Assembly: GCF_003018255.1 (NCBI RefSeq)
Contig: NZ_CP027440.1
Origin: Escherichia coli
GTDB taxonomy: Bacteria; Pseudomonadota; Gammaproteobacteria; Enterobacterales; Enterobacteriaceae
Strand: one strand, 5' to 3'
DNA: 64,000 bases
Below are positions 10,216 to 22,889 of this stretch, piece after piece; positions within the stretch are counted from its first letter, which is position 1; the number at the start of each line of letters is the position of its first letter. The translations under genes and the position numbers were made by a program. A model generated the notes under the pieces. The model made no database searches. It worked only from the letters and a program-made list of their open reading frames with translations, and was not told the DNA's origin.

Positions 10216-10245
10216 ACGAAAACCGTATCAACCGAAGTTTCAATT

Positions 10246-11034
10246 TCAGGATACTTCTTGCTCGGCAACCACCAGTTCAACATTCTCTTCACTTAACAAC
10301 TGGCAGAAAGAATTGGGAGGCGGGGCATCAGTAAAAAAAGCCCTGACATTCCGTGCATTGCCAATTGAAACGGCAGCAGACGCGGTAAACTTCGTATGAT
10401 CGGCCACTAACAATGTATTCCGCGCATGTTTAATCATCGTTCTCGCGACTAACGCTTCATTGACATCAAATTCCAGTAGGGTGCCGTCATGTTCAATGGC
10501 ACCTATACTGGTGATTAAATAATCTGCGCGGAAGCCTTCAATAAAATCCACGGCTCCTGGGCCGATAATCCCACCGTTATGAGCGCGTAAAGTGCCTCCC
10601 GGCACCATCACTTCAATATCCTGATTCTTATAAAGAATCTGTGCCACACGCAGGCTATTAGTGATAATGCGTAAATCACGCCGGTTGAGTAATGCCCTGG
10701 CAACGGCTTCTACGGTTGTACCGATGGTGATAAAGACGGTACAGCGTTCGGGAAGGTAATCGGCGACTGCCTCAGCGATCGCCCGTTTCTCGGCGGTGAG
10801 CGAAAGTTCCCGTTGCTCAAAAGCGGTATTCATGACGCTGGAGACGCGCCCGGCCCCTCCATGATGACGGGTGATCAAGCCCTGCTCACTGAGTTTTCGG
10901 ATATCCCGGCGCACGGTTTGCGTTGAAACATCCAGCAGTTGTGCCAGTTCTTCAATATTCATATAACCGCGTTCTGCGATTAGATGAACGAGTTGGTCAT
11001 GGCGTGGATTACCTGTCACTTCGATGATACTCAT
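10246..11034 (-). CDS. DeoR-family transcriptional repressor, divergent homologue of CsqR/YihW
   Basis: 262-aa ORF with a GGGAG RBS. The N-terminal HTH (NIEELAQLLDVSTQTVRRDIRKLSEQGLITRHHGG) is nearly identical to K-12 YihW, while the C-terminal sugar-phosphate-binding domain is more divergent. Overall identity is roughly 70-75 percent from memory. Confidence 0.9.
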   Translation of the reverse strand: MSIIEVTGNPRHDQLVHLIAERGYMNIEELAQLLDVSTQTVRRDIRKLSEQGLITRHHGGAGRVSSVMNTAFEQRELSLTAEKRAIAEAVADYLPERCTVFITIGTTVEAVARALLNRRDLRIITNSLRVAQILYKNQDIEVMVPGGTLRAHNGGIIGPGAVDFIEGFRADYLITSIGAIEHDGTLLEFDVNEALVARTMIKHARNTLLVADHTKFTASAAVSIGNARNVRAFFTDAPPPNSFCQLLSEENVELVVAEQEVS

Positions 11035-11073
11035 GAATACTCCCTTGCCCCTCCTCGGTAGATGTTTACCATT

Positions 11074-11970
11074 TTACGCATAAAGTGACAAAAATGATTC
11101 GGTTTGCTCACGATTAGGAATGCCGGCCCGACCGCCAGGCTGGGTACATTTCATCGCGGCAACCGCACTGGCAAAACGAATAGCCTCTTTTGTTGGCATT
11201 TTTTCTGCCAACGCTACCGCGAGTGCGCCGTGAAAAACATCGCCTGCTCCAGTGGTATCAACCACATTGACAGAAAATGCCTCCTGTTGACACAAATGAC
11301 CATCTTCAATCCACAACGATCCTTCAGAACCCAGCGTAACATACACTTTACCTGCTGTTTGTGTCGTTGCCTGGAACAAACCTTCTTCAGGTGACTGCAG
11401 GCCAGTCATGCGTTTCAGCCCAGGTGTTGAGAACACGGCGTGATCGGCAAGCGCGACAAGTGGAGAAATATCCTGCGGTGTCATATCGGCGTCTAAAAGC
11501 GTTGTCACACCCGCAAGGCGCGCTAGCGAGAATGCTTTTTCAGTACCGCTATGCCAGCGAACATCGGCCAGAATCAGATCATAACGAGAGAAATCGATCG
11601 CTTCTAACCATTCGGCATCAGTACCGAGATCAGGACTTGGATAATTAACGATAATCCGTTCGCCATGCTGATCAACGAGGATCGCTGATTGCGACGAACG
11701 GGCGTTAGGATATCGGCGGCAAAATGCGGTATTGACGCCCCAACCCTCAAGTTCTGCAAGTAAGGTATTTCCACAACTGTCATCGCCGACGCGACCGATG
11801 AAATCAACCTCCACGCCAAGCTTTGCGATTGCAACAGCGGCTGTTGCTGCCGGGCCGCCACCAATCTCAAGATAATGATTTGCCTGATATTTCCCGCCGC
11901 CCTCCGGCAGAGTGGGCAAAGAATAAATCCTGTCCTGAACTGTGATACCCACGCATGCAATTCTGGTCAT
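11074..11970 (-). CDS. PfkB-family sugar kinase, divergent homologue of sulfofructose kinase YihV
   Basis: ORF 11074-12021. I place the start at MTRIACVGI (ATG at 11968-11970), giving 298 aa as in YihV. The motifs [17 protein letters not shown] and [12 protein letters not shown] are shared with K-12 YihV, at roughly 65 percent identity from memory. Confidence 0.88.
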
Positions 11971-12142
11971 ATTTGTCTTGTCCTGTTTAATTTTGTCGTC
12001 TTTGGTCAATTTAAATGACACAAATGATCAAATTAGTGATGCGTGTCGTGTTTTTGAACATAAATTACAAATATGCTCAAAAACAGACGAAAACGAATTT
12101 TCAATTGTCATTATTTTGTCAATGTCAGACAGGAGAGTATTC
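11971..12142. promoter_or_regulatory. AT-rich divergent control region between the kinase-regulator operon and the reductase-aldolase operon
   Basis: 172 bp with no ORF. Five same-orientation TTGTC pentamers are present (11973, 11978, 11993, 12105, 12116). No operator can be assigned from the sequence alone. Confidence 0.45.
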
Positions 12143-13021
12143 ATGGCAACCATTGCATTTCTCGGGCTGGGGCAGATGGGTAGCCCAATGGCTAACAATC
12201 TATTGCAAAAAGGGCATTCATTGCAGGTATTTGATGTCAATGCACAGGCCGTCGATGTGCTAGTTACGCAGGGGGCCACTGCGGCACAAACCCCAGCGGA
12301 AGCAGCAGCAGGCGCTGAATTTATCATCACTATGCTTCCCAATGGTGACATTGTTCGACAGGTTCTGTTGGGGGAAAAAGGCGTCTGTGAGGCTGTTTCA
12401 TCTGACGCGTTATTGATTGATATGTCGACTATTCATCCCTTACAGACCGATGCATTAATACGGGAGTTACAAGAAAAAGGCATCAGTATGATGGACGCTC
12501 CCGTGGGCAGAACGTCCGTGAATGCGATTGATGGCACATTGCTGATTTTAGCGGGTGGCACTGATGAGCAGATTGCACGTGCACGCCCGATTCTCATGTG
12601 CATGGGTAATGAACTGGTCGAGGCTGGCGGCCCAGGAATGGGGATCCGCGTGAAGCTAATTAACAACTATATGAGCATTGCGCTTAATGCGCTGTCCTCC
12701 GAGGCCGCTGTGTTATGTGAGTCACTGGGATTAAATCTTGATGTCGCAATTAAGGTGATGAGTGGTACGGCAGCAGGGAAAGGACATTTTACGACCACCT
12801 GGCCTGGCAAAGTGCTGAAAGGCGATCTTTCACCCGCCTTCATGGTGGATCTGGCGTTGAAAGATCTGCGTATTGCAGTTGACGTCGCTCGGGAGACGGG
12901 GGCACCGCTCAATATGGGGATTGCAGCAGAAAGTTATTACGCCGCAGCAAGTCAAGACGGCAAAGGGCGGCAGGATTGGAGTGCCCTGCTAAATCAGGTT
13001 CGCCAGCAGGCTGGTCTTTAA
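12143..13021 (+). CDS. NAD(P)-dependent beta-hydroxyacid dehydrogenase family, divergent homologue of sulfolactaldehyde reductase YihU
   Basis: ORF 11942-13021. I place the start at [17 protein letters not shown] (ATG at 12143, AGGAGA RBS at 12131). The segments PVGRTS and [19 protein letters not shown] are shared with K-12 YihU. Confidence 0.88.
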
Positions 13022-13045
13022 TTTTATCTATTAACAGGAGTTTCT

Positions 13046-13933
13046 ATGTCATCCCACTTCACCCCATTTACGCTGAAAGATATCTCCCGCCCAGGTGGTG
13101 GATTCGCCATGTTAGCTGTCGATCAGCGTGAGGCCATGCGCCTGATGTTTGCGGCAGCAGGGCAGCCAAAACCCATCGCCGACAGTGTACTCACCGATTT
13201 TAAAGTTGCCGCGACCCGAATCCTTTCTCCTTATGCTTCTGCCGTTCTGGCGGATAAACAATTTTGTCTTGAACAAATAGTCGAGCAGGGCGCTGTGGCT
13301 AATTCTTGCGGCCTGATTGTCGCTGCCGATCTTTTTATCCCAGGTAATGGCATCCCGGTTGATAGCGTTGAAATAGATATGTCCGTCGACCCGCATAAAG
13401 CCCGTGAAATGGGGGCTAAGGCAATGAAATTACTTGTACTCTGGCGTGAAGATGAACCCGCAGAGGAACGTCTGGCAATGGTTGATAAATTTGTTCGTCG
13501 CTGCCGTAGTGCCGGGCTGGTTAGCATTATTGAACCTGTGGTGCGTCCACCTCGTCGCGGTTGGGACTTTGATCGTGAAAGCGCCATTGTTGCCGCCGCC
13601 GCAGAGCTTGGTGGAACAGAGGCTGATCTTTACAAAGCCGAGATGCCATTAGGGGGCAAAGGCGATGAAAAAACCTTACTTGCCGCCTGTCAGCAACTTA
13701 ACGATCAGATGAAGATGCCGTGGGTAATTCTTTCTTCTGGCGTTGATGCCGATATTTTTGGCCGTGCAGTAAGTATTGCCATGAAAGGTGGTGCGTCGGG
13801 CTTCCTGGCTGGACGAGCGGTATGGGCGTCGGTTGTTGGTGCACAAGATCCACAAACCATGCTGCGCGATGTCTCCGTTCCACGCTTGCAACGGCTGGCT
13901 GAAATTGTCGATGAAGGTATCGCGCAACGCTAA
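13046..13933 (+). CDS. LacD-family class I aldolase, divergent homologue of sulfofructose-phosphate aldolase YihT
   Basis: 295-aa ORF with an AGGAG RBS. The segments [41 protein letters not shown] and [17 protein letters not shown] are shared with K-12 YihT. Confidence 0.88.
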
Positions 13934-13965: not shown

Positions 13966-14976
13966 ATGGATAAAATTACCCAGGTTTTATTTTCAGATAT
14001 TGGGAAAGTCACCACTCAATATGTTGAAGTACCACACCAGCAACTTAAACCGCACGAAGTACGGATTGCGCCCGTGTTCTACGGGATATGCGGTTCGGAT
14101 CTGCATGTTCTGAAAGGCGGTCATCCGTTTGCCAAGCCGCCTGTCGTCCCCGGTCATGAAATTGCAGCGCGCGTTACGGAAGTGGGCAGCGACGTTAAAA
14201 ATGTACAGCCGGGCGATCATGTTGTGGTCGATCCCATCATGGCTTGCATGGAATGCCGAGCCTGCAAAGCAGGACGTTTTAATCTTTGTGAACCACCGCA
14301 GGTTGCTGGTTTTCGCGCACCGGGCTTTGCTCGCTCACAACACATTGTTCCTGCGCGTAATTGCCATGTCGCACCAGCCTCTTTACCGCTAAAAGTGTTG
14401 GCCTTTGCCGAACCGGCGGCTTGTGCTCGTCACTGCGTTAACCGAATGCCGAAAGCTTCTCTGGAAAGCGTACTGGTGATTGGTGCCGGAACGATAGGCT
14501 TATCCATCGTGCAGGCACTGCGCATTATGGGGGCAGGTAAGATTACCGTGATTGAACCTGACGCTGCCAAACGCGCGCTGGCGTTAAAGCTGGGCGCAGC
14601 AGAAGTTTGGGCACCAGGTGAGCTGGCCGCAGATGTGAGATTTACGGGGGCGATTGATGTCGTTGCAGCGCAGGCCACGCTTAACGATGCATGTACCCGT
14701 GTATATGCCGGAGGCACCGTCGTGTGCATGGGCGTACCAAGTGGGCCGCGTGAAATACCATTACCGATGATGCAACGTTTCGAGCGTGACTTGCTCAACT
14801 CTGGCATGTACATCCCTGAAGATTTCGATGCTGTTATCGAATGGCTGGCGGATGGGCGGTTTGATACCAGTGAACTGGTTACCGATTTATTTGCCATTGA
14901 GGATGCAGCGGCGGCATTCGAACGCGCGCAGCAAAATGACTCCATAAAGGTCATGCTGCAATTTGCGCCGGAATGA
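13966..14976 (+). CDS. Zn-dependent medium-chain (polyol/threonine dehydrogenase-type) NAD-dependent dehydrogenase
   Basis: 336-aa ORF with a GGAG RBS. Catalytic Zn ligands are present (GICGSDLH, PGHE, AEP), along with the structural Zn motif CMECRACKAGRFNLC and the Rossmann motif GAGTIG followed by an acidic residue (VIEPD). K-12 has no counterpart at this locus. Confidence 0.88.
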   Translation: MDKITQVLFSDIGKVTTQYVEVPHQQLKPHEVRIAPVFYGICGSDLHVLKGGHPFAKPPVVPGHEIAARVTEVGSDVKNVQPGDHVVVDPIMACMECRACKAGRFNLCEPPQVAGFRAPGFARSQHIVPARNCHVAPASLPLKVLAFAEPAACARHCVNRMPKASLESVLVIGAGTIGLSIVQALRIMGAGKITVIEPDAAKRALALKLGAAEVWAPGELAADVRFTGAIDVVAAQATLNDACTRVYAGGTVVCMGVPSGPREIPLPMMQRFERDLLNSGMYIPEDFDAVIEWLADGRFDTSELVTDLFAIEDAAAAFERAQQNDSIKVMLQFAPE

Positions 14977-15045: not shown

Positions 15046-16479
15046 ATGAGTCAAATCACCAGTCCTGCAACTTATTCAATTAGTCGGCCACAGGACGTAA
15101 TTGATATTGTTAATAAGAACTCTGCAATCAACACCAGTATCGGCGTTATTTTTATTGCTTTGGGCGGCATATTGATTGATGCCTACCAGGTGGCGATGGT
15201 GGGGTTTGGTAATAAATACATTGCCGCTCAATTCGGCATTTCTCCGGGTCTTGCTGCGACCGTCAATGCGTCAGTATTAATCGCCGCGTTAATTGGCGGT
15301 TTATTAGCGAACCGAGTAATAAACCGCTTTGGGCAAAAGCGGGCATTTATTATTGGCATGGGGCTGTGCACCATCGGTGCTGCAGCGGTAGCTATTGCTC
15401 CCAGTATCTGGTGGGTGCTGGTGTGCCGCGTCATCATGGGCTTTGGTTTAGGCATCGACTTCCCTTTGGCAACTAATGCCGTGGCAGAGCTTCGTGGTTC
15501 AACGTCGAAGAAAACCGGAACGTCGGTCAACCTCTGGCAAATGGCCTGGTATGTTTCGACAACCGTTGTTTATTTGGTGCTTTTGCCGCTGCTTCTGTCG
15601 GGTATCGCTGAAGAACAATTGTGGCGTTACGGAATATTCATCGGAGCTATTTTTGCAGTCATCTTCATGATTTTGCGTTACTTCTTTATTGGTGAATCCG
15701 CAATGTGGGCCGCACGCGTTGGGCGTTACCAGGAAGCGTGCGACATTCTGGGAAAACGTTATGGTGTTCAGGCTCGCGTTGCGGCATCGGGTACAACAGA
15801 AGCGAAATTCTCGGAAAAAGCAGAGAATAAATACAGTGGTGGATATGGCATCTTATTTAATGATCGTTACCGCAAACGCACCATTCTTGGCTGTGTCGTG
15901 GCAACCATGCAGGCGTGGCAATATAACGCCGTAGGTGTTTATCTTCCTCTTACGTTGGCGGGAATAATAAGTGGCGGGCTTACTGGCGCGTTGACCGGTT
16001 CTGCCGTCGTGAATGCCCTTTGTGGGGTGACAGGTGGGATGATCGGCTCGTTTATTCTCCAACGACTGGGTACTCGCCGACAGTCGATGTATGGATTTGC
16101 TGTTGTGACCTTAGCATTGCTGTCGTTAGGCGCACTGGCAACGACTAATCCTTGGCTGTCTTTAGGGTTATTGGGATCAATTATTTTCTTCCATTCAGCG
16201 GGTCCTGGTGGGCTGGGCATGACCATTGCCACACTCTCTTATCCTCCCGCTATTCGCCCTACTGGGGTCGGATTTGCCCGCGCTATTATGCGCACAGGGG
16301 CAATTGCAGGACTCATTTTCTGGCCGATGCTGTGGGGTGCGTTGAAAACTGAAGCGTTTTACTGGTTGGCAATCGTGCCATTCCTGGGATTCCTAACCTG
16401 TGTATTGATTAATTGGGAACCACTGGGTGCAAATGTTGATGCTGAGGACGCAGAGGTTCTGGCTGAATTGAAGAAATAA
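15046..16479 (+). CDS. MFS transporter, sugar-porter-like family
   Basis: 477-aa ORF with an AAGGA RBS. It has 12 predicted hydrophobic segments, the motif-A-like RFGQKR, and the sugar-porter-like ESAMWAARVGRYQEA. Confidence 0.85.
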   Translation: MSQITSPATYSISRPQDVIDIVNKNSAINTSIGVIFIALGGILIDAYQVAMVGFGNKYIAAQFGISPGLAATVNASVLIAALIGGLLANRVINRFGQKRAFIIGMGLCTIGAAAVAIAPSIWWVLVCRVIMGFGLGIDFPLATNAVAELRGSTSKKTGTSVNLWQMAWYVSTTVVYLVLLPLLLSGIAEEQLWRYGIFIGAIFAVIFMILRYFFIGESAMWAARVGRYQEACDILGKRYGVQARVAASGTTEAKFSEKAENKYSGGYGILFNDRYRKRTILGCVVATMQAWQYNAVGVYLPLTLAGIISGGLTGALTGSAVVNALCGVTGGMIGSFILQRLGTRRQSMYGFAVVTLALLSLGALATTNPWLSLGLLGSIIFFHSAGPGGLGMTIATLSYPPAIRPTGVGFARAIMRTGAIAGLIFWPMLWGALKTEAFYWLAIVPFLGFLTCVLINWEPLGANVDAEDAEVLAELKK

Positions 16480-16480
16480 T

Positions 16481-16514
16481 TTAATGCGCATCGGCTTAAG
16501 CCGATGCGCATTAA
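16481..16514 (+). terminator. Perfect 34-nt palindrome (15-bp stem, 4-nt loop) between the two MFS genes
   Basis: TTAATGCGCATCGGC-TTAA-GCCGATGCGCATTAA, starting 2 nt after the stop of the first MFS gene. There is no T-tract, so it could be an attenuator, an mRNA-stabilising hairpin, or a terminator. Confidence 0.5.
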
Positions 16515-16577: not shown

Positions 16578-17927
16578 ATGTCTGAAAAGTTACCCGCACC
16601 GCGTGAAGGGCTTTCCGGTAAAGCCATGAGACGTGTCGTTATGGGCAGTTTCGCAGGCGCGTTAATGGAATGGTATGACTTCTTTATTTTTGGCACGGCA
16701 GCAGGACTGGTATTTGCACCGCTGTTTTATCCAGACAGCGATCCTTTTATAGGTCTTATAGCTTCCTTTGCGACCTTTGGTGTCGGTTTTCTGACTCGTC
16801 CTTTAGGGGGCATCGTCTTTGGTCATTTTGGCGATAAAATCGGGCGAAAAATAACACTTATCTGGACGCTGGCTATTGTCGGTTGCTCCACATTTTTGAT
16901 TGGTTTTATTCCGACGTATCAGGAAATTGGCATTTGGGCACCGCTTGTATTAATGGTGCTGCGTTTGATTCAGGGCTTTGGTCTTGGTGGCGAGTACGGT
17001 GGAGCGGCATTGATGACCATAGAATCAGCGCCCGAATCCCGACGCGGATTTTTAGGTTCACTCCCGCAAACGGCTGCGTCTGTGGGTATTATGCTGGCAA
17101 CCGGTATTTTTGCTCTCTGTAACCATTTTCTTACTTCGGAGCAGTTTCTCTCCTGGGGATGGCGCATTCCGTTTTGGCTTTCTGCGGTGATGTTGATCGT
17201 TGGGCTGTTTATCCGCCTACATACCGAAGAAACGCTGGATTTTCAAAAGCAAAAAACGACGAATAATAAAGAAAAGTCCGTTCCTCCGTTGATTGAATTA
17301 TTCAAAAAACATCCACGAAATATTTTATTGGCACTGGGTGCGAGGCTGGCGGAAAGTGTCTCCTCTAATATTATTAATGCCTTTGGTATTGTCTATATTT
17401 CCAGCCAATTAGCATTGTCGCGAGATATTCCCCTGACGGGTATGTTGATTGCCTCGGCGATCGGTATTTTCAGTTGTCCATTGGTTGGATGGTTATCAGA
17501 TCGTATAGGTCAAAAAAGTCTGTATTTGTCGGGAGCAGGATTTTGTGTCCTGTTCGCGTTTCCTTTCTTCTTATTATTGGATAGCAAAAGTACGCTCATC
17601 ATCTGGTGCAGTATGATCCTCGGCTACAACTTAGGTCCGACGATGATGTTTGCCGTGCAGCCAACACTTTTCACCCGCATGTTCGGTACCAAAGTACGAT
17701 ATACCGGCCTTTCTTTTGCTTATCAATTTTCCGCGATTCTTGGCGGACTAAGCCCCCTTATCGCCTCAAGTTTGCTGGCGCTAGGGGGAGGAAAACCGTG
17801 GTATGTCGCTCTGTTTTTATTTGCTGTCTCAGTTCTTTCCTTTGTTTGCGTCTGGCTGATTGAGCCGACCGATGAACAAGAAACCGCTTCTTACCGCTAC
17901 ATCAGGGAACAATCTCATGAAAACTGA
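16578..17927 (+). CDS. MFS transporter, metabolite:H+ symporter (MHS; ProP/KgtP/ShiA-like) family
   Basis: 449-aa ORF with an AGGAGAGGA RBS. The N-terminus RRVVMGSFAGALMEWYDFFIFG and the segment GHFGDKIGRK are typical of MHS-family organic-acid and metabolite symporters. Confidence 0.85.
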   Translation: MSEKLPAPREGLSGKAMRRVVMGSFAGALMEWYDFFIFGTAAGLVFAPLFYPDSDPFIGLIASFATFGVGFLTRPLGGIVFGHFGDKIGRKITLIWTLAIVGCSTFLIGFIPTYQEIGIWAPLVLMVLRLIQGFGLGGEYGGAALMTIESAPESRRGFLGSLPQTAASVGIMLATGIFALCNHFLTSEQFLSWGWRIPFWLSAVMLIVGLFIRLHTEETLDFQKQKTTNNKEKSVPPLIELFKKHPRNILLALGARLAESVSSNIINAFGIVYISSQLALSRDIPLTGMLIASAIGIFSCPLVGWLSDRIGQKSLYLSGAGFCVLFAFPFFLLLDSKSTLIIWCSMILGYNLGPTMMFAVQPTLFTRMFGTKVRYTGLSFAYQFSAILGGLSPLIASSLLALGGGKPWYVALFLFAVSVLSFVCVWLIEPTDEQETASYRYIREQSHEN

Positions 17928-18804
17928 ACGAAAAAACGAGCATTACCTGGCGCTACAACAGGCGTTTGACGCGCCATGGCCTGGGCCTGTAGGAGAGTTA
18001 GTGATGCTGGAAAAAGGCAATATTCACCTGCAGATTTATCCGCATGATGGTGCCAGGATAACCTCGTTAAAGGCATTTGGTTCTGAAGTATTACGCCAAT
18101 GGCAGCCGCAGCGCAGAGCTTTTCAGTATGGCTGTTTCCCAATGGTGCCGTGGGCAGGGCGACTGGGGAATGCGACGCTGAATGCTGGTGGGCAATGTTA
18201 TTCTTTACCCGCCAATAAACCACCACATGCGTTGCATGGTATGGCTTGTTACTCAACGTGGGAAATCATCGACAAAACAGCAGATTCCCTGACTTTACGT
18301 ATGCCCCTGGCTTCACCGTGGCCCTGGCAAGGGGAAGTGATTCAGACTTTTTTGCTGGAGAACGATGCGCTGGTTTTGCAACTGGAAGTCCATTCATATG
18401 CCGATACATTCCCGGCCTCCGCAGGCTGGCATCCGTGGTTTGCGAAAAAGCTGACTCCGCAAAATACAGAATCGTTGCAGGTGCTTTTTGATGCGGACTG
18501 GCAAGAAGAAGCGGGTAGTGATGAACTGCCAACTGGAAATCGTATCTCTCCTCAAGTCGGTCCCTGGGATGACTGTTTTGGTTTTTATGACGGGGTGAAG
18601 GTTAAGTTACTGTGGCCTGGTAAACTCGCGATGACCATGACCTCTTCTGCAAACAGTCTGGTGGTATTTGATAAACAGCCCGATGCCACCTGTATTAACC
18701 CGCTGACTCAGGCACCTAACGCAATAAATCTAACGCCGGAATTTGTGACACCAGATAAGCCGCTGGTCATCGAAACTCGTTGGCAATTTACACCTGAATC
18801 TTAA
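17917..18804 (+). CDS. Aldose 1-epimerase (mutarotase) family protein, distant from K-12 YihR
   Basis: ORF 17860-18804. I prefer the ATG at 17917, which overlaps the upstream MFS stop by 11 nt. GalM-type motifs are present (FPMVPWAGR, HALHG, AGWHPWF). The start is uncertain and 17860 is possible. Confidence 0.8.
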   Translation: MKTERKNEHYLALQQAFDAPWPGPVGELVMLEKGNIHLQIYPHDGARITSLKAFGSEVLRQWQPQRRAFQYGCFPMVPWAGRLGNATLNAGGQCYSLPANKPPHALHGMACYSTWEIIDKTADSLTLRMPLASPWPWQGEVIQTFLLENDALVLQLEVHSYADTFPASAGWHPWFAKKLTPQNTESLQVLFDADWQEEAGSDELPTGNRISPQVGPWDDCFGFYDGVKVKLLWPGKLAMTMTSSANSLVVFDKQPDATCINPLTQAPNAINLTPEFVTPDKPLVIETRWQFTPES

Positions 18805-21893: not shown

Positions 21894-22814
21894 TTACCTT
21901 CCCGCTCTCCAGGCAACATCCCGTAGCGCCGATCGCGCAGCCTCGCTGATACCACCTAACTGAAAAAATCCGTGGATAACGCCAAGGTAGCGTTGGCAGG
22001 TGCATTGCACTCCTTGCCCTGTCATGCGGTGATACAACGCTTCACCTTCATCGCAAAGTGGGTCGTATTCAGCGGTAATGATATGTACAGGTGGCAAGCC
22101 ATTGAAATCATCGCGCCAAAGAGGGCTGGCTTCAGGATGCCTGCGTTCAATGCCTGGCAGGTACATCTCAAAGCCGCTCAGTAAAGTGTCGCGTGTGATG
22201 ATGTAATCGTGACCATTGCGTATGTAGCTTTCGAAATGCGCAGTCGCATCAAGCATGGGATAAATTAAGATGAGTTGTGCTGGTTGCCACTCGCCAGCAC
22301 GCTTCAATCGCAAAGCAGTTACCAGCGCCAGATGCCCTCCCGCACTGTCACCGGCAAGAGTTATTCGTTGTTTATCAACGCCGAGTCGTTCGGCGTGTTG
22401 CCGGACTAATTCTGCACCTCGTTGTGCATCATCATGGGCGGCGGGGAAAGTATGTTCCGGTGCCAGCCGATACTGGACGGCAATAATCCGACATTGCCCG
22501 TAATAGGCTAACTGGCGCAGCTGGTTGTCGTGAGTTGCGAACCCGCCGCTAACAAAACAGCCACCGTAGTAATAAATTATCGTCGGGAGTAATGTCGGGG
22601 CATTCAGCGGTGACACTATTCGTAAGGTCATCCCTTCAAGTTCGATAGTCTGAATATCTACCCGCGTTTCTGTCTCACCCGCAAGGACAGCGCTGGCGAT
22701 ATAGCCCTCTCTGCGCTGCGTAATACTTTGTTGGCGCGATGAGGGGCGACCCGCAGCGATAAACTCTTCGACTAACTCTGCAATTCCTTTTTCCAGTGCC
22801 ATAGTAGAACTCAT
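21894..22814 (-). CDS. alpha/beta-hydrolase, hormone-sensitive-lipase (Aes-like) family esterase
   Basis: ORF 21894-22877 with a GTG start. More likely starts are the ATG at 22814 (MSSTMALEKG) or at 22802. It has the nucleophile elbow GDSAGG, DPLCDEG (Asp) and HGFF (His). The oxyanion motif reads YGGC instead of the usual HGGG. I do not remember this gene at this locus in K-12. Confidence 0.82.
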   Translation of the reverse strand: MSSTMALEKGIAELVEEFIAAGRPSSRQQSITQRREGYIASAVLAGETETRVDIQTIELEGMTLRIVSPLNAPTLLPTIIYYYGGCFVSGGFATHDNQLRQLAYYGQCRIIAVQYRLAPEHTFPAAHDDAQRGAELVRQHAERLGVDKQRITLAGDSAGGHLALVTALRLKRAGEWQPAQLILIYPMLDATAHFESYIRNGHDYIITRDTLLSGFEMYLPGIERRHPEASPLWRDDFNGLPPVHIITAEYDPLCDEGEALYHRMTGQGVQCTCQRYLGVIHGFFQLGGISEAARSALRDVAWRAGR

Positions 22815-22889
22815 TTTGCTGTATGAATGTACAGTTTTATACACCCGTTTTTGCTGGATGGATACAGGGAAATTCACGGGCGTGAAAAA

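Follow-up and report, generated by a model that had tools for sequence, protein, structure and literature searches.

A zinc-dependent dehydrogenase in the isomerase position of a conserved yih-locus module points to an undescribed entry into sulfosugar breakdown

How is the ketose substrate of a putative sulfofructose kinase made where no isomerase gene accompanies it? This question is raised by the yih locus in a 64,000-nt stretch of Escherichia coli DNA (contig NZ_CP027440.1 of assembly GCF_003018255.1, hereafter the window). In E. coli K-12 the gene that follows the aldolase gene yihT is yihS, which encodes the sulfoquinovose isomerase. The same slot in the window, 32 nt downstream of a LacD/YihT-type aldolase gene, holds the gene of a zinc-dependent medium-chain dehydrogenase/reductase (MDR), hereafter the dehydrogenase. 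An initial annotation of the sequence had noticed this replacement directly 3' of the YihT-like aldolase gene, an observation that is confirmed here, and had proposed that the ketose is made by oxidation of a hexitol-type compound or by a reduce-then-oxidise bypass of the isomerase. The presence of the dehydrogenase at the isomerase position points to an undescribed way into sulfosugar breakdown. Our best reading, to which we give about an even chance, is that this enzyme makes sulfofructose available through a redox reaction and not through an isomerisation, with a sulfo-hexitol and redox-processed sulfoquinovose both plausible as the starting compound.

The open reading frame of the dehydrogenase (WP_000357981.1) is intact: it runs for 336 codons from an ATG, and a GGAGA Shine-Dalgarno sequence precedes this start by 7 nt. 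Its product belongs to the zinc-dependent MDR superfamily and combines a GroES-like catalytic domain with a Rossmann-type zinc-alcohol dehydrogenase (ADH) domain. The Pfam domains ADH_N (PF08240, 92 bits) and ADH_zinc_N (PF00107, 64 bits) both exceed their gathering scores, and a weak additional match to Glu_dehyd_C was seen. The features first read from the sequence, namely Cys/His/Glu zinc ligands, a four-cysteine structural zinc loop and a GAGTIG motif followed by an acidic residue, were all recovered: the catalytic zinc ligands are C42, H64 and E65, plus E149, the loop is exactly ACMECRACKAGRFNLC with its cysteines at C94, C97, C100 and C108, GAGTIG occupies residues 173-178, and E197 is the acidic residue that closes the second Rossmann strand. 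Each of these residues is invariant in 17 of 17 orthologues sharing 56-78% identity with the query. Human sorbitol dehydrogenase was aligned using a sequence whose register agreed at all 14 published residue numbers checked; its C44/H69/E70/E155/D203 pair with C42/H64/E65/E149/E197 of the dehydrogenase. The correspondence of E197 to D203, the NAD-determining residue of sorbitol dehydrogenase, suggests a preference for NAD. Compared with sorbitol (L-iditol 2-) dehydrogenase, the protein shares the Cys-His-Glu zinc site, the NAD-favoring acidic residue and the fold, but only 26-28% identity, and its four-Cys structural zinc site is absent from the human sequence aligned. The gene probably encodes an NAD+-preferring zinc enzyme of the sorbitol dehydrogenase type.

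An AlphaFold2 model of the dehydrogenase (pLDDT 93.9) returned only MDR enzymes as its top Foldseek matches, with template modeling (TM) scores of 0.83-0.91 at 22-29% identity. These include human sorbitol dehydrogenase (1PL6, TM 0.91), a putative zinc-binding dehydrogenase (4EJ6, TM 0.90), RspB (4ILK, TM 0.89), L-idonate 5-dehydrogenase (6DKH, TM 0.89) and HpsP (8WWD, TM 0.84-0.85). The top sequence match in the PDB was RspB, with 132 bits and ∼27% identity. No curated NCBIfam family claims the protein, as every score lies far under its cut-off: 165 bits for YdjJ, the best match (NF007489, cut-off 376); 149 for the scyllo-inosose 3-dehydrogenase IolM, the second-best (cut-off 450); 139 and 120 for the L-threonine 3-dehydrogenase models NF003808 (cut-off 380) and TIGR00692 (cut-off 458); 125 for L-idonate 5-dehydrogenase (IdnD, NF007375, cut-off 469); and 113, with partial coverage, for galactitol-1-phosphate 5-dehydrogenase (GatD, NF007642, cut-off 550). 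The dehydrogenase therefore appears to have no close homologue among characterised enzymes, and with the threonine, idonate and galactitol-1-phosphate dehydrogenases and YdjJ all this distant, the unrelated close relative (threonine dehydrogenase, for example) that the initial annotation had named as fatal to its own proposal was not found.

The sequences nearest to the dehydrogenase family share 37-40% identity with it. Judged from the one representative searched against the PDB (P0112, 181-185 bits to sorbitol dehydrogenase and ketose reductase), this nearest outgroup appears to be sorbitol-dehydrogenase-like. Three basic residues are specific to the family as compared to the outgroup: R/K117 in place of Q, R/K123 in place of A, and R271 in place of D. 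Basic residues of this kind occur in a loop that borders the substrate site in sorbitol dehydrogenase, and R117 sits between the equivalents of F118 and T121 of that site. Of the residues that form this site, F118/T121/F297/R298/Y299, which correspond to G115/A118/G280/M281/Y282 here, the tyrosine alone is kept. The basic residues at 117, 123 and 271, together with the loss of R298, would fit an anionic polyol-like substrate. RspB and IdnD offer a parallel. RspB is described as an L-gulonate 5-dehydrogenase that converts L-gulonate to D-fructuronate, and IdnD as an L-idonate 5-dehydrogenase; in both cases the substrate is a hexitol-like anion, oxidised at the secondary alcohol beside its terminal CH2OH. 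They resemble the dehydrogenase as its best PDB sequence match (RspB) and as two of its top structural matches, and differ from it by their ∼27% identity and other genomic contexts. The proposed sulfo-hexitol step would thus have a parallel in the RspB reaction, with a carboxylate in place of the sulfonate.

The dehydrogenase is under strong purifying selection, with a dN/dS of ∼0.02 and a dN of ∼0.03 as compared to Citrobacter and Phytobacter orthologues. This is the lowest dN among the genes of the module to which it belongs, making it the most constrained of them, and within Enterobacterales it is the best-conserved module protein (92-95% identity).

The enzymes encoded next to the dehydrogenase carry the signatures of sulfosugar metabolism. 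Structural work on the K-12 pathway identified K27, N109 and R138, with D13, S95 and D244, as sulfonate or sugar contacts of the kinase YihV, K193, R253, S226, S227 and A26 as contacts of the aldolase YihT, and N174, S178 and R123 as contacts of the reductase YihU (PMC8006165). The window kinase keeps D13, K27, S95, N109, R138 and D244, the reductase keeps R123, K171, N174 and S178, and the aldolase keeps A26, K193 (the Schiff base residue), S226, S227 and R253; the published contacts are likewise kept in every module of the E. coli type. The reductase also passes the NCBIfam sulfolactaldehyde-reductase model NF012005 with 580 bits, where 348 are required. Whatever the module type, the class I aldolase shares 63-74% identity with the window copy, and A26/K193/S226/S227/R253 are kept in all 35 orthologues examined. 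A class II aldolase takes its place in Vibrio, Leminorella, Budvicia and some Citrobacter modules, and the Vibrio protein scores 365 bits to HpSqiA (8Q58), a class II enzyme whose sulfofructose-1-phosphate aldolase activity has been validated by experiment. This displacement of one aldolase class by the other argues that the intermediate cleaved is sulfofructose-1-phosphate or a very close analogue. By its conserved residues, the module would qualify as a sulfo-EMP (Embden-Meyerhof-Parnas) system of sulfoglycolysis with respect to sulfofructose kinase, sulfofructose-1-phosphate aldolase and sulfolactaldehyde reductase, and it lacks the isomerase. By gene content it holds everything needed to turn sulfofructose into dihydroxyacetone phosphate (DHAP) and 2,3-dihydroxypropane-1-sulfonate (DHPS); no isomerase was found in it.

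To define this module beyond E. coli, loci were collected from one genome per species at a dehydrogenase identity of at least 52%, and the window and K-12 proteins were mapped onto them. The scan yielded 45 loci from ∼30 genera of Proteobacteria and Actinobacteria, including many Enterobacterales, Vibrio, Sutterella, Succinivibrionaceae, Propionivibrio, Microvirga, Roseospira, Pleomorphomonas, Telmatospirillum, Propionibacteriaceae and Schaalia; Klebsiella, Citrobacter and gut Succinivibrionaceae are among the carriers. Homologues at 55-79% identity occur in many taxa, and gene tables show the same gene set around the dehydrogenase in Rhodopseudomonas palustris BisB18, Streptomyces marincola and Vibrio rhodolitus. 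The dehydrogenase is accompanied by a PfkB kinase, an aldolase, a reductase of the 3-hydroxyisobutyrate dehydrogenase (HIBADH) type and a DeoR regulator. A first major facilitator superfamily transporter (MFS1, 61-92% identity) directly follows it in nearly every complete locus, and a second (MFS2, 59-88% identity) and an aldose-1-epimerase (mutarotase)-like gene are present in almost all and most of the orthologous modules, respectively. Homologues of YihS and of the sulfoquinovosidase YihQ were absent within 10 kb of all 48 loci inspected, a survey in which isomerases of the PF02952 type were not searched by sequence. Nor was any extra neighbor (aldo-keto reductase, glycosidase, isomerase or desulfonation gene) shared across distant taxa; the neighbors that do recur, typA, yihX, yihY and fabY, are local synteny genes confined to enterobacteria. 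As no further gene is common to distant taxa, the module appears to be self-contained.

More distant dehydrogenase homologues, at 43-45% identity, still lie in clusters of PfkB kinase, aldolase, ADH and MFS genes. In Streptomyces rapamycinicus (locus L083, 1658-10486; dehydrogenase identity 43%), a TauE-family exporter gene stands between the aldolase and dehydrogenase genes, and a divergent aldehyde dehydrogenase gene and an enolase-superfamily (MR_MLE) gene adjoin. TauE is presumably a family of sulfite/sulfonate exporters, and the arrangement suggests a sulfolactate-forming variant, possibly tied to sulfo-sugar-acid metabolism.

At least three module types can be told apart. The E. coli type has a YihV/YihU-like kinase and reductase. 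The alpha-proteobacterial/actinobacterial type has an unrelated PfkB kinase and HIBADH reductase (∼31% identity to YihV and YihU) in the order kinase-aldolase-ADH-MFS1-reductase-MFS2-epimerase. The third type, seen in Citrobacter sp. NCU1, Tenebrionibacter and Pantoea BAV 3049, pairs a kinase 45% identical to YihV with a divergent class II aldolase. Because the kinase and reductase diverge so far in the alpha-proteobacterial/actinobacterial version, the E. coli cassette looks like a hybrid or recombinant, in which the dehydrogenase, aldolase, MFS1, MFS2 and epimerase-like genes would come from the widespread module, and the kinase, reductase and regulator genes from a sulfo-EMP cluster of the YihV/YihU/CsqR kind.

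Within E. coli, the window locus is a distinct eight-gene module at the yih locus (DeoR regulator, PfkB kinase, HIBADH-type reductase, aldolase, zinc ADH, MFS1, MFS2 and mutarotase-like gene; Table 1) and not a truncated K-12 cassette. It lies between yihL, yihM and yihN upstream and yihX, yihY, dtd and fabY downstream, the same flanks between which K-12 carries ompL-yihOPQRSTUVW. The window is 99.9% identical to complete E. coli genomes. Its DNA matches that of K-12 at 98% identity as far as position 10237 and again from 18878 on, and the junctions are sharp, falling ∼50 nt after yihN and ∼45 nt before yihX. Between them only the yihW/V/U/T homologues (10358-13915) align with K-12, inverted and at 65-67% nucleotide identity, which points to old alternative alleles and not to a recent deletion. 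The dehydrogenase gene, annotated as "zinc-dependent alcohol dehydrogenase", is carried by 1327 of 5426 complete E. coli genomes (∼24%), UTI89 included, and in all but one of them (1326) the copy covers at least 80% of the gene. With yihS found in 4018 of the 5426, the counts fit two nearly exclusive alleles at one locus. Two of the 1327 dehydrogenase gene copies are on plasmids.

As compared to the K-12 sulfo-EMP cluster, the window cassette occupies the same chromosomal locus, its regulator, kinase, reductase and aldolase are homologous with all sulfonate-pocket residues kept, and both cassettes have two transporters and a mutarotase-family gene. The window cassette differs in lacking the YihS isomerase, the YihQ sulfoquinovosidase and the porin, in drawing its transporters from other MFS families (YihO and YihP of K-12 are of the GPH type), in its inverted orientation, and in the zinc MDR dehydrogenase at the isomerase position. 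In the literature this allele is the "short yih cassette (yihTUVW)", carried by E. coli Nissle 1917 and many pathogenic strains, and was treated as truncated and probably out of sulfoquinovose catabolism (PMC12608037). The window allele matches that description in its locus, its orientation (reversed as compared to the long form), the 72% identity of its regulator to CsqR and its presence in about one quarter of strains. The published account counts four genes with a lost function and passes over the dehydrogenase, MFS1, MFS2 and epimerase-like genes; it also reports that short-cassette strains have no yihS elsewhere in the genome (PMC12608037). The present comparison corrects the view that the short cassette is a remnant, truncated and without function: it is an intact, conserved eight-gene module. 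Its published status, the two MFS transporters and the mutarotase-like gene are points that the initial annotation did not contain.

From these observations we infer the reaction of the dehydrogenase, its place before the kinase, its substrate and the roles of the transporters. One MFS transporter would take in an anionic sulfosugar-derived compound, from which the dehydrogenase would yield 6-deoxy-6-sulfofructose or a close stereoisomer. Relatives of the dehydrogenase typically oxidise a secondary alcohol next to a terminal CH2OH; here the secondary alcohol beside the terminal CH2OH of a 6-deoxy-6-sulfo-hexitol would be oxidised, for example that of 6-deoxy-6-sulfo-D-glucitol or -mannitol to give sulfofructose. 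The hexitol could be imported as such or be made from sulfoquinovose in a reduce-then-oxidise route. The YihV-like kinase would then phosphorylate C1, the YihT-like aldolase would split the product into DHAP and sulfolactaldehyde, the YihU-like reductase would form DHPS, and the second MFS transporter would export it. With a hexitol substrate, the NADH gained at entry would offset the NADH spent on sulfolactaldehyde reduction, and the pathway would be redox-balanced. An oxidative route via sulfogluconate and a sulfo-pentulose was considered and set aside, as the kinase keeps all residues for furanose-form sulfofructose and the reductase is a YihU equivalog. The earlier proposal of entry by oxidation is supported in part, by the isomerase-free conserved module, the kept residues of sulfofructose kinase, sulfofructose-1-phosphate aldolase and sulfolactaldehyde reductase, the family-specific basic residues of the dehydrogenase and its sorbitol-dehydrogenase-like outgroup.

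The mutarotase-like protein bears on whether the substrate is cyclic. When the window protein and its orthologues (L003, L005, L009 and L021-L046) were compared, the His and Asp motifs HALHG, WHPWF and PWDDCFGF were invariant. The Glu of the YihR VEP motif, presumably the catalytic base as in characterised mutarotases, is replaced by Asn (CINP) in the proteins of E. coli, Klebsiella, Vibrio, Propionivibrio, Sutterella and Succinivibrionaceae, and is retained (CVEP) in those of Rhodopseudomonas, Leminorella, Edaphovirga, Microvirga, Pleomorphomonas and Schaalia. The protein may not be a mutarotase of the conventional kind.

Several points weigh against a dehydrogenase that makes sulfofructose ahead of the kinase. 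We know of no natural 6-deoxy-6-sulfo-hexitol, and a full-text literature search for sulfo-hexitol compounds found nothing. The basic residues are placed in the pocket by sequence homology only. The alpha-proteobacterial/actinobacterial kinase and reductase, at ∼31% identity to YihV and YihU, are without the K27/N109/R138 (KNR) triad and N174/S178, with R/T/gap in the kinase and S/G in the reductase at these positions. The mutarotase-like gene suggests a cyclic reducing sugar and not an acyclic polyol, a suggestion weakened by the Asn at the presumed catalytic position in E. coli. For a cyclic sugar also speak the one-for-one gene match with the K-12 cassette and the growth of Nissle 1917 on sulfoquinovose, which was reported as comparable to that of K-12 with no other candidate pathway (PMC12608037). 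Against sulfoquinovose as the substrate, the neighbor survey found no aldose reductase in the module. The Nissle 1917 regulator orthologue binds the yihU/V intergenic DNA and is released only weakly by sulfoquinovose; yihTUVW was not induced by this sugar and the transcriptome was starvation-like (PMC12608037), which argues against sulfoquinovose as the inducer. Finally, Dinoroseobacter shibae sets a precedent by which the dehydrogenase could act after the aldolase: its HpsP (8WWD), an MDR zinc enzyme resembling sorbitol dehydrogenase, oxidises S-DHPS to sulfolactaldehyde (PMC11131964).

This last idea, an HpsP-like oxidoreductase of sulfolactaldehyde and DHPS serving as a second sulfolactaldehyde reductase or one with another stereochemistry or cofactor, would need sulfofructose to be imported directly or the ketose to come from the mutarotase-like protein. 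The two enzymes are MDR zinc proteins of the sorbitol dehydrogenase type that match in structure, the HpsP substrate is a sulfonated polyol, and the sulfolactaldehyde-processing enzyme does vary among modules (YihU-like, divergent HIBADH, aldehyde dehydrogenase or none). However, a dozen other MDR enzymes are at least as similar to the dehydrogenase as HpsP is (108 bits, 26-27% identity), and HpsP oxidises the primary alcohol of a C3 sulfonate and is encoded with hpsO, hpsN and DHPS transporters (PMC11131964), not with a kinase, an aldolase and MFS genes. E. coli-type modules already contain a YihU-type reductase that clears its curated model, which would make the dehydrogenase redundant although no gene of the module is more constrained, and more than 45 modules would be left without a ketose-making enzyme. 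We regard a role after the aldolase as unlikely. Slightly more weight, if still on the unlikely side, goes to an oxidation of the sulfosugar ring itself, at C1, C2, C3 or C4 of sulfoquinovose or of another sulfosugar such as sulforhamnose or sulfofucose, to a keto intermediate from which the kinase substrate would then be made. In one form of the idea, sulfoquinovose would undergo a net change from aldose to ketose while the cofactor is recycled. The analogy is with MDR enzymes that act on cyclic sugars and cyclitols, namely archaeal glucose dehydrogenase, YcjQ and IolM. IolM is the second-best NCBIfam match, the Glu_dehyd_C match is weak but present, the mutarotase-like gene of most lineages suggests an anomer-specific hemiacetal step, and in a gene-for-gene match with K-12 the epimerase-like gene is the counterpart of YihR and the dehydrogenase that of YihS; the reported growth of Nissle 1917 would also be accounted for. 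Against this, the module holds no second enzyme to finish the conversion, these scores all stay far under the family cut-offs, the protein is compact at 336 residues, the E. coli mutarotase-like protein has no Glu at the presumed catalytic position, and the Nissle 1917 cassette was uninduced by sulfoquinovose (PMC12608037).

The module could also serve something other than a sulfonate, such as a neutral or carboxylated polyol or a sugar acid, its likeness to yihTUV reflecting common descent only. Models for this are the L-gulonate route and the E. coli ydj cluster, which comprises the MDR dehydrogenases YdjJ and YdjL, the PfkB kinase YdjH, the aldolase YdjI, an MFS transporter and a DeoR regulator, and which has reportedly been proposed to serve an anionic higher sugar. 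The module is built on the same plan, but the ydj cluster has a different aldolase and no sulfonate signatures, and the YdjJ model scores less than half its cut-off. The missing KNR triad and N174/S178 of the alpha-proteobacterial/actinobacterial kinase and reductase would agree with a non-sulfonate substrate, as would MFS2, whose family is best known for carboxylates, and RspB as the best PDB sequence match. On the other hand, the class I aldolase remains 63-74% identical across module types, with the window copy at 67% to YihT and all sulfofructose-1-phosphate-site residues kept, a homologue of a validated class II aldolase for this same substrate substitutes in some species, the E. coli reductase passes the curated sulfolactaldehyde-reductase model, and a TauE exporter accompanies a distant module. 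This makes a non-sulfonate pathway quite improbable. Least credible by far is that the dehydrogenase is an unrelated passenger or a decaying remnant of a non-functional yih cassette. The published account does present the allele as "short", truncated and without a transcriptional response to sulfoquinovose (PMC12608037), but it has eight intact genes whose order is conserved across phyla, nearly all dehydrogenase copies in the E. coli genomes that carry the gene (1326 of 1327) cover at least 80% of it, and the yihWVUT-like part has diverged to 65-67% DNA identity from K-12; the truncated-remnant idea was rejected on the cross-phylum conservation and the low dN/dS.

A bolder form of the redox proposal is also unlikely, at about the level of the HpsP-like role: a single dehydrogenase, possibly with the mutarotase-like protein, could turn sulfoquinovose into sulfofructose by hydride shuttling. 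It would act as a redox "isomerase" with cofactor recycling and a sulfo-hexitol or 2-keto compound as the intermediate, and would constitute a sixth type of entry into sulfoglycolysis.

Table 1. Genes of the yih-locus module and other features of the window. Percentages are identities.
Feature	Coordinates	Strand	Remarks
DeoR-family regulator, YihW/CsqR homologue	10246..11034	-	72% to K-12 CsqR; NCBIfam DeoR/GlpR 256 bits
PfkB-family kinase, YihV-like putative sulfofructose kinase	11074..11970	-	67% to YihV, gapless
HIBADH-family reductase, YihU-like putative sulfolactaldehyde 3-reductase	12143..13021	+	73% to YihU
Class I LacD/YihT-type aldolase, putative sulfofructose-1-phosphate aldolase	13046..13933	+	67% to K-12 YihT
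Zinc-dependent MDR dehydrogenase	13966..14976	+	336 aa; putative entry enzyme in place of sulfoquinovose isomerase
MFS1, sugar-porter / aromatic-acid:H+ symporter-like	15046..16479	+	Pfam Sugar_tr and MFS_1
Palindrome	16481..16514		TTAATGCGCATCGGCTTAAGCCGATGCGCATTAA; perfect, 34 nt, 15-bp stem
MFS2, metabolite:H+ symporter family, resembles shikimate transporter	16578..17927	+	TIGR00883 407 bits, PRK09952 410 bits, both under cut-off
Aldose-1-epimerase (mutarotase)-like protein	17917..18804	+	Pfam Aldose_epim 76 bits; 27% to K-12 YihR
Alpha/beta-hydrolase gene	21894..22877	-	after fabY; K-12 has yiiE and yiiF there

Some details of the locus complete the description. For the yihU-like gene, the list of open reading frames offers a 359-aa version with a GTG start (11942-13021, + strand) that overlaps the divergent kinase gene; the true start is the ATG of Table 1 (292 aa), in agreement with the alignment to K-12 YihU and with the RefSeq annotation. 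The start of the mutarotase-like gene overlaps the end of MFS2 by 11 nt. The palindrome lies within the operon, right behind the MFS1 stop codon and ahead of the MFS2 start; it might act as an attenuator or as a hairpin that stabilises the RNA, or be a REP-like (repetitive extragenic palindromic) element.

What was already known is the "short" cassette itself; in the literature searched, no account was found of its full gene content, of its spread across phyla or of a role for the dehydrogenase. A full-text search for sulfoquinovose or sulfofructose reductases or dehydrogenases found no such step described, and searches combining sulfoquinovose with medium-chain or sorbitol dehydrogenase returned irrelevant matches or the HpsP paper only. 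No such dehydrogenase appears in a sulfoglycolysis cluster in the yih work of 2018, 2024 and 2025, the class II aldolase work of 2023 or the rumen work of 2026; a 2026 review lists only known pathways, and a search for the CFT073-style locus tags c4819-c4824 gave only unrelated literature matches. Of two sulfoglycolysis gene surveys consulted, one kept only aldolases in recognised sulfo-EMP groupings and another tracked the sulfoquinovosidase gene; surveys of either kind would miss this module.

In the gut, the DHPS from sulfoquinovose breakdown feeds hydrogen sulfide-producing bacteria. Should sulfofructose indeed come from the dehydrogenase, the module would imply either a new natural sulfonated polyol nutrient or a new enzymatic route from aldose to ketose. 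Conversion of sulfoquinovose itself by the dehydrogenase would be considerably more unusual. Were this achieved by hydride shuttling, one quarter of E. coli, including uropathogenic strains and Nissle 1917, along with many soil, gut and marine bacteria, would be unrecognised consumers of free sulfoquinovose.

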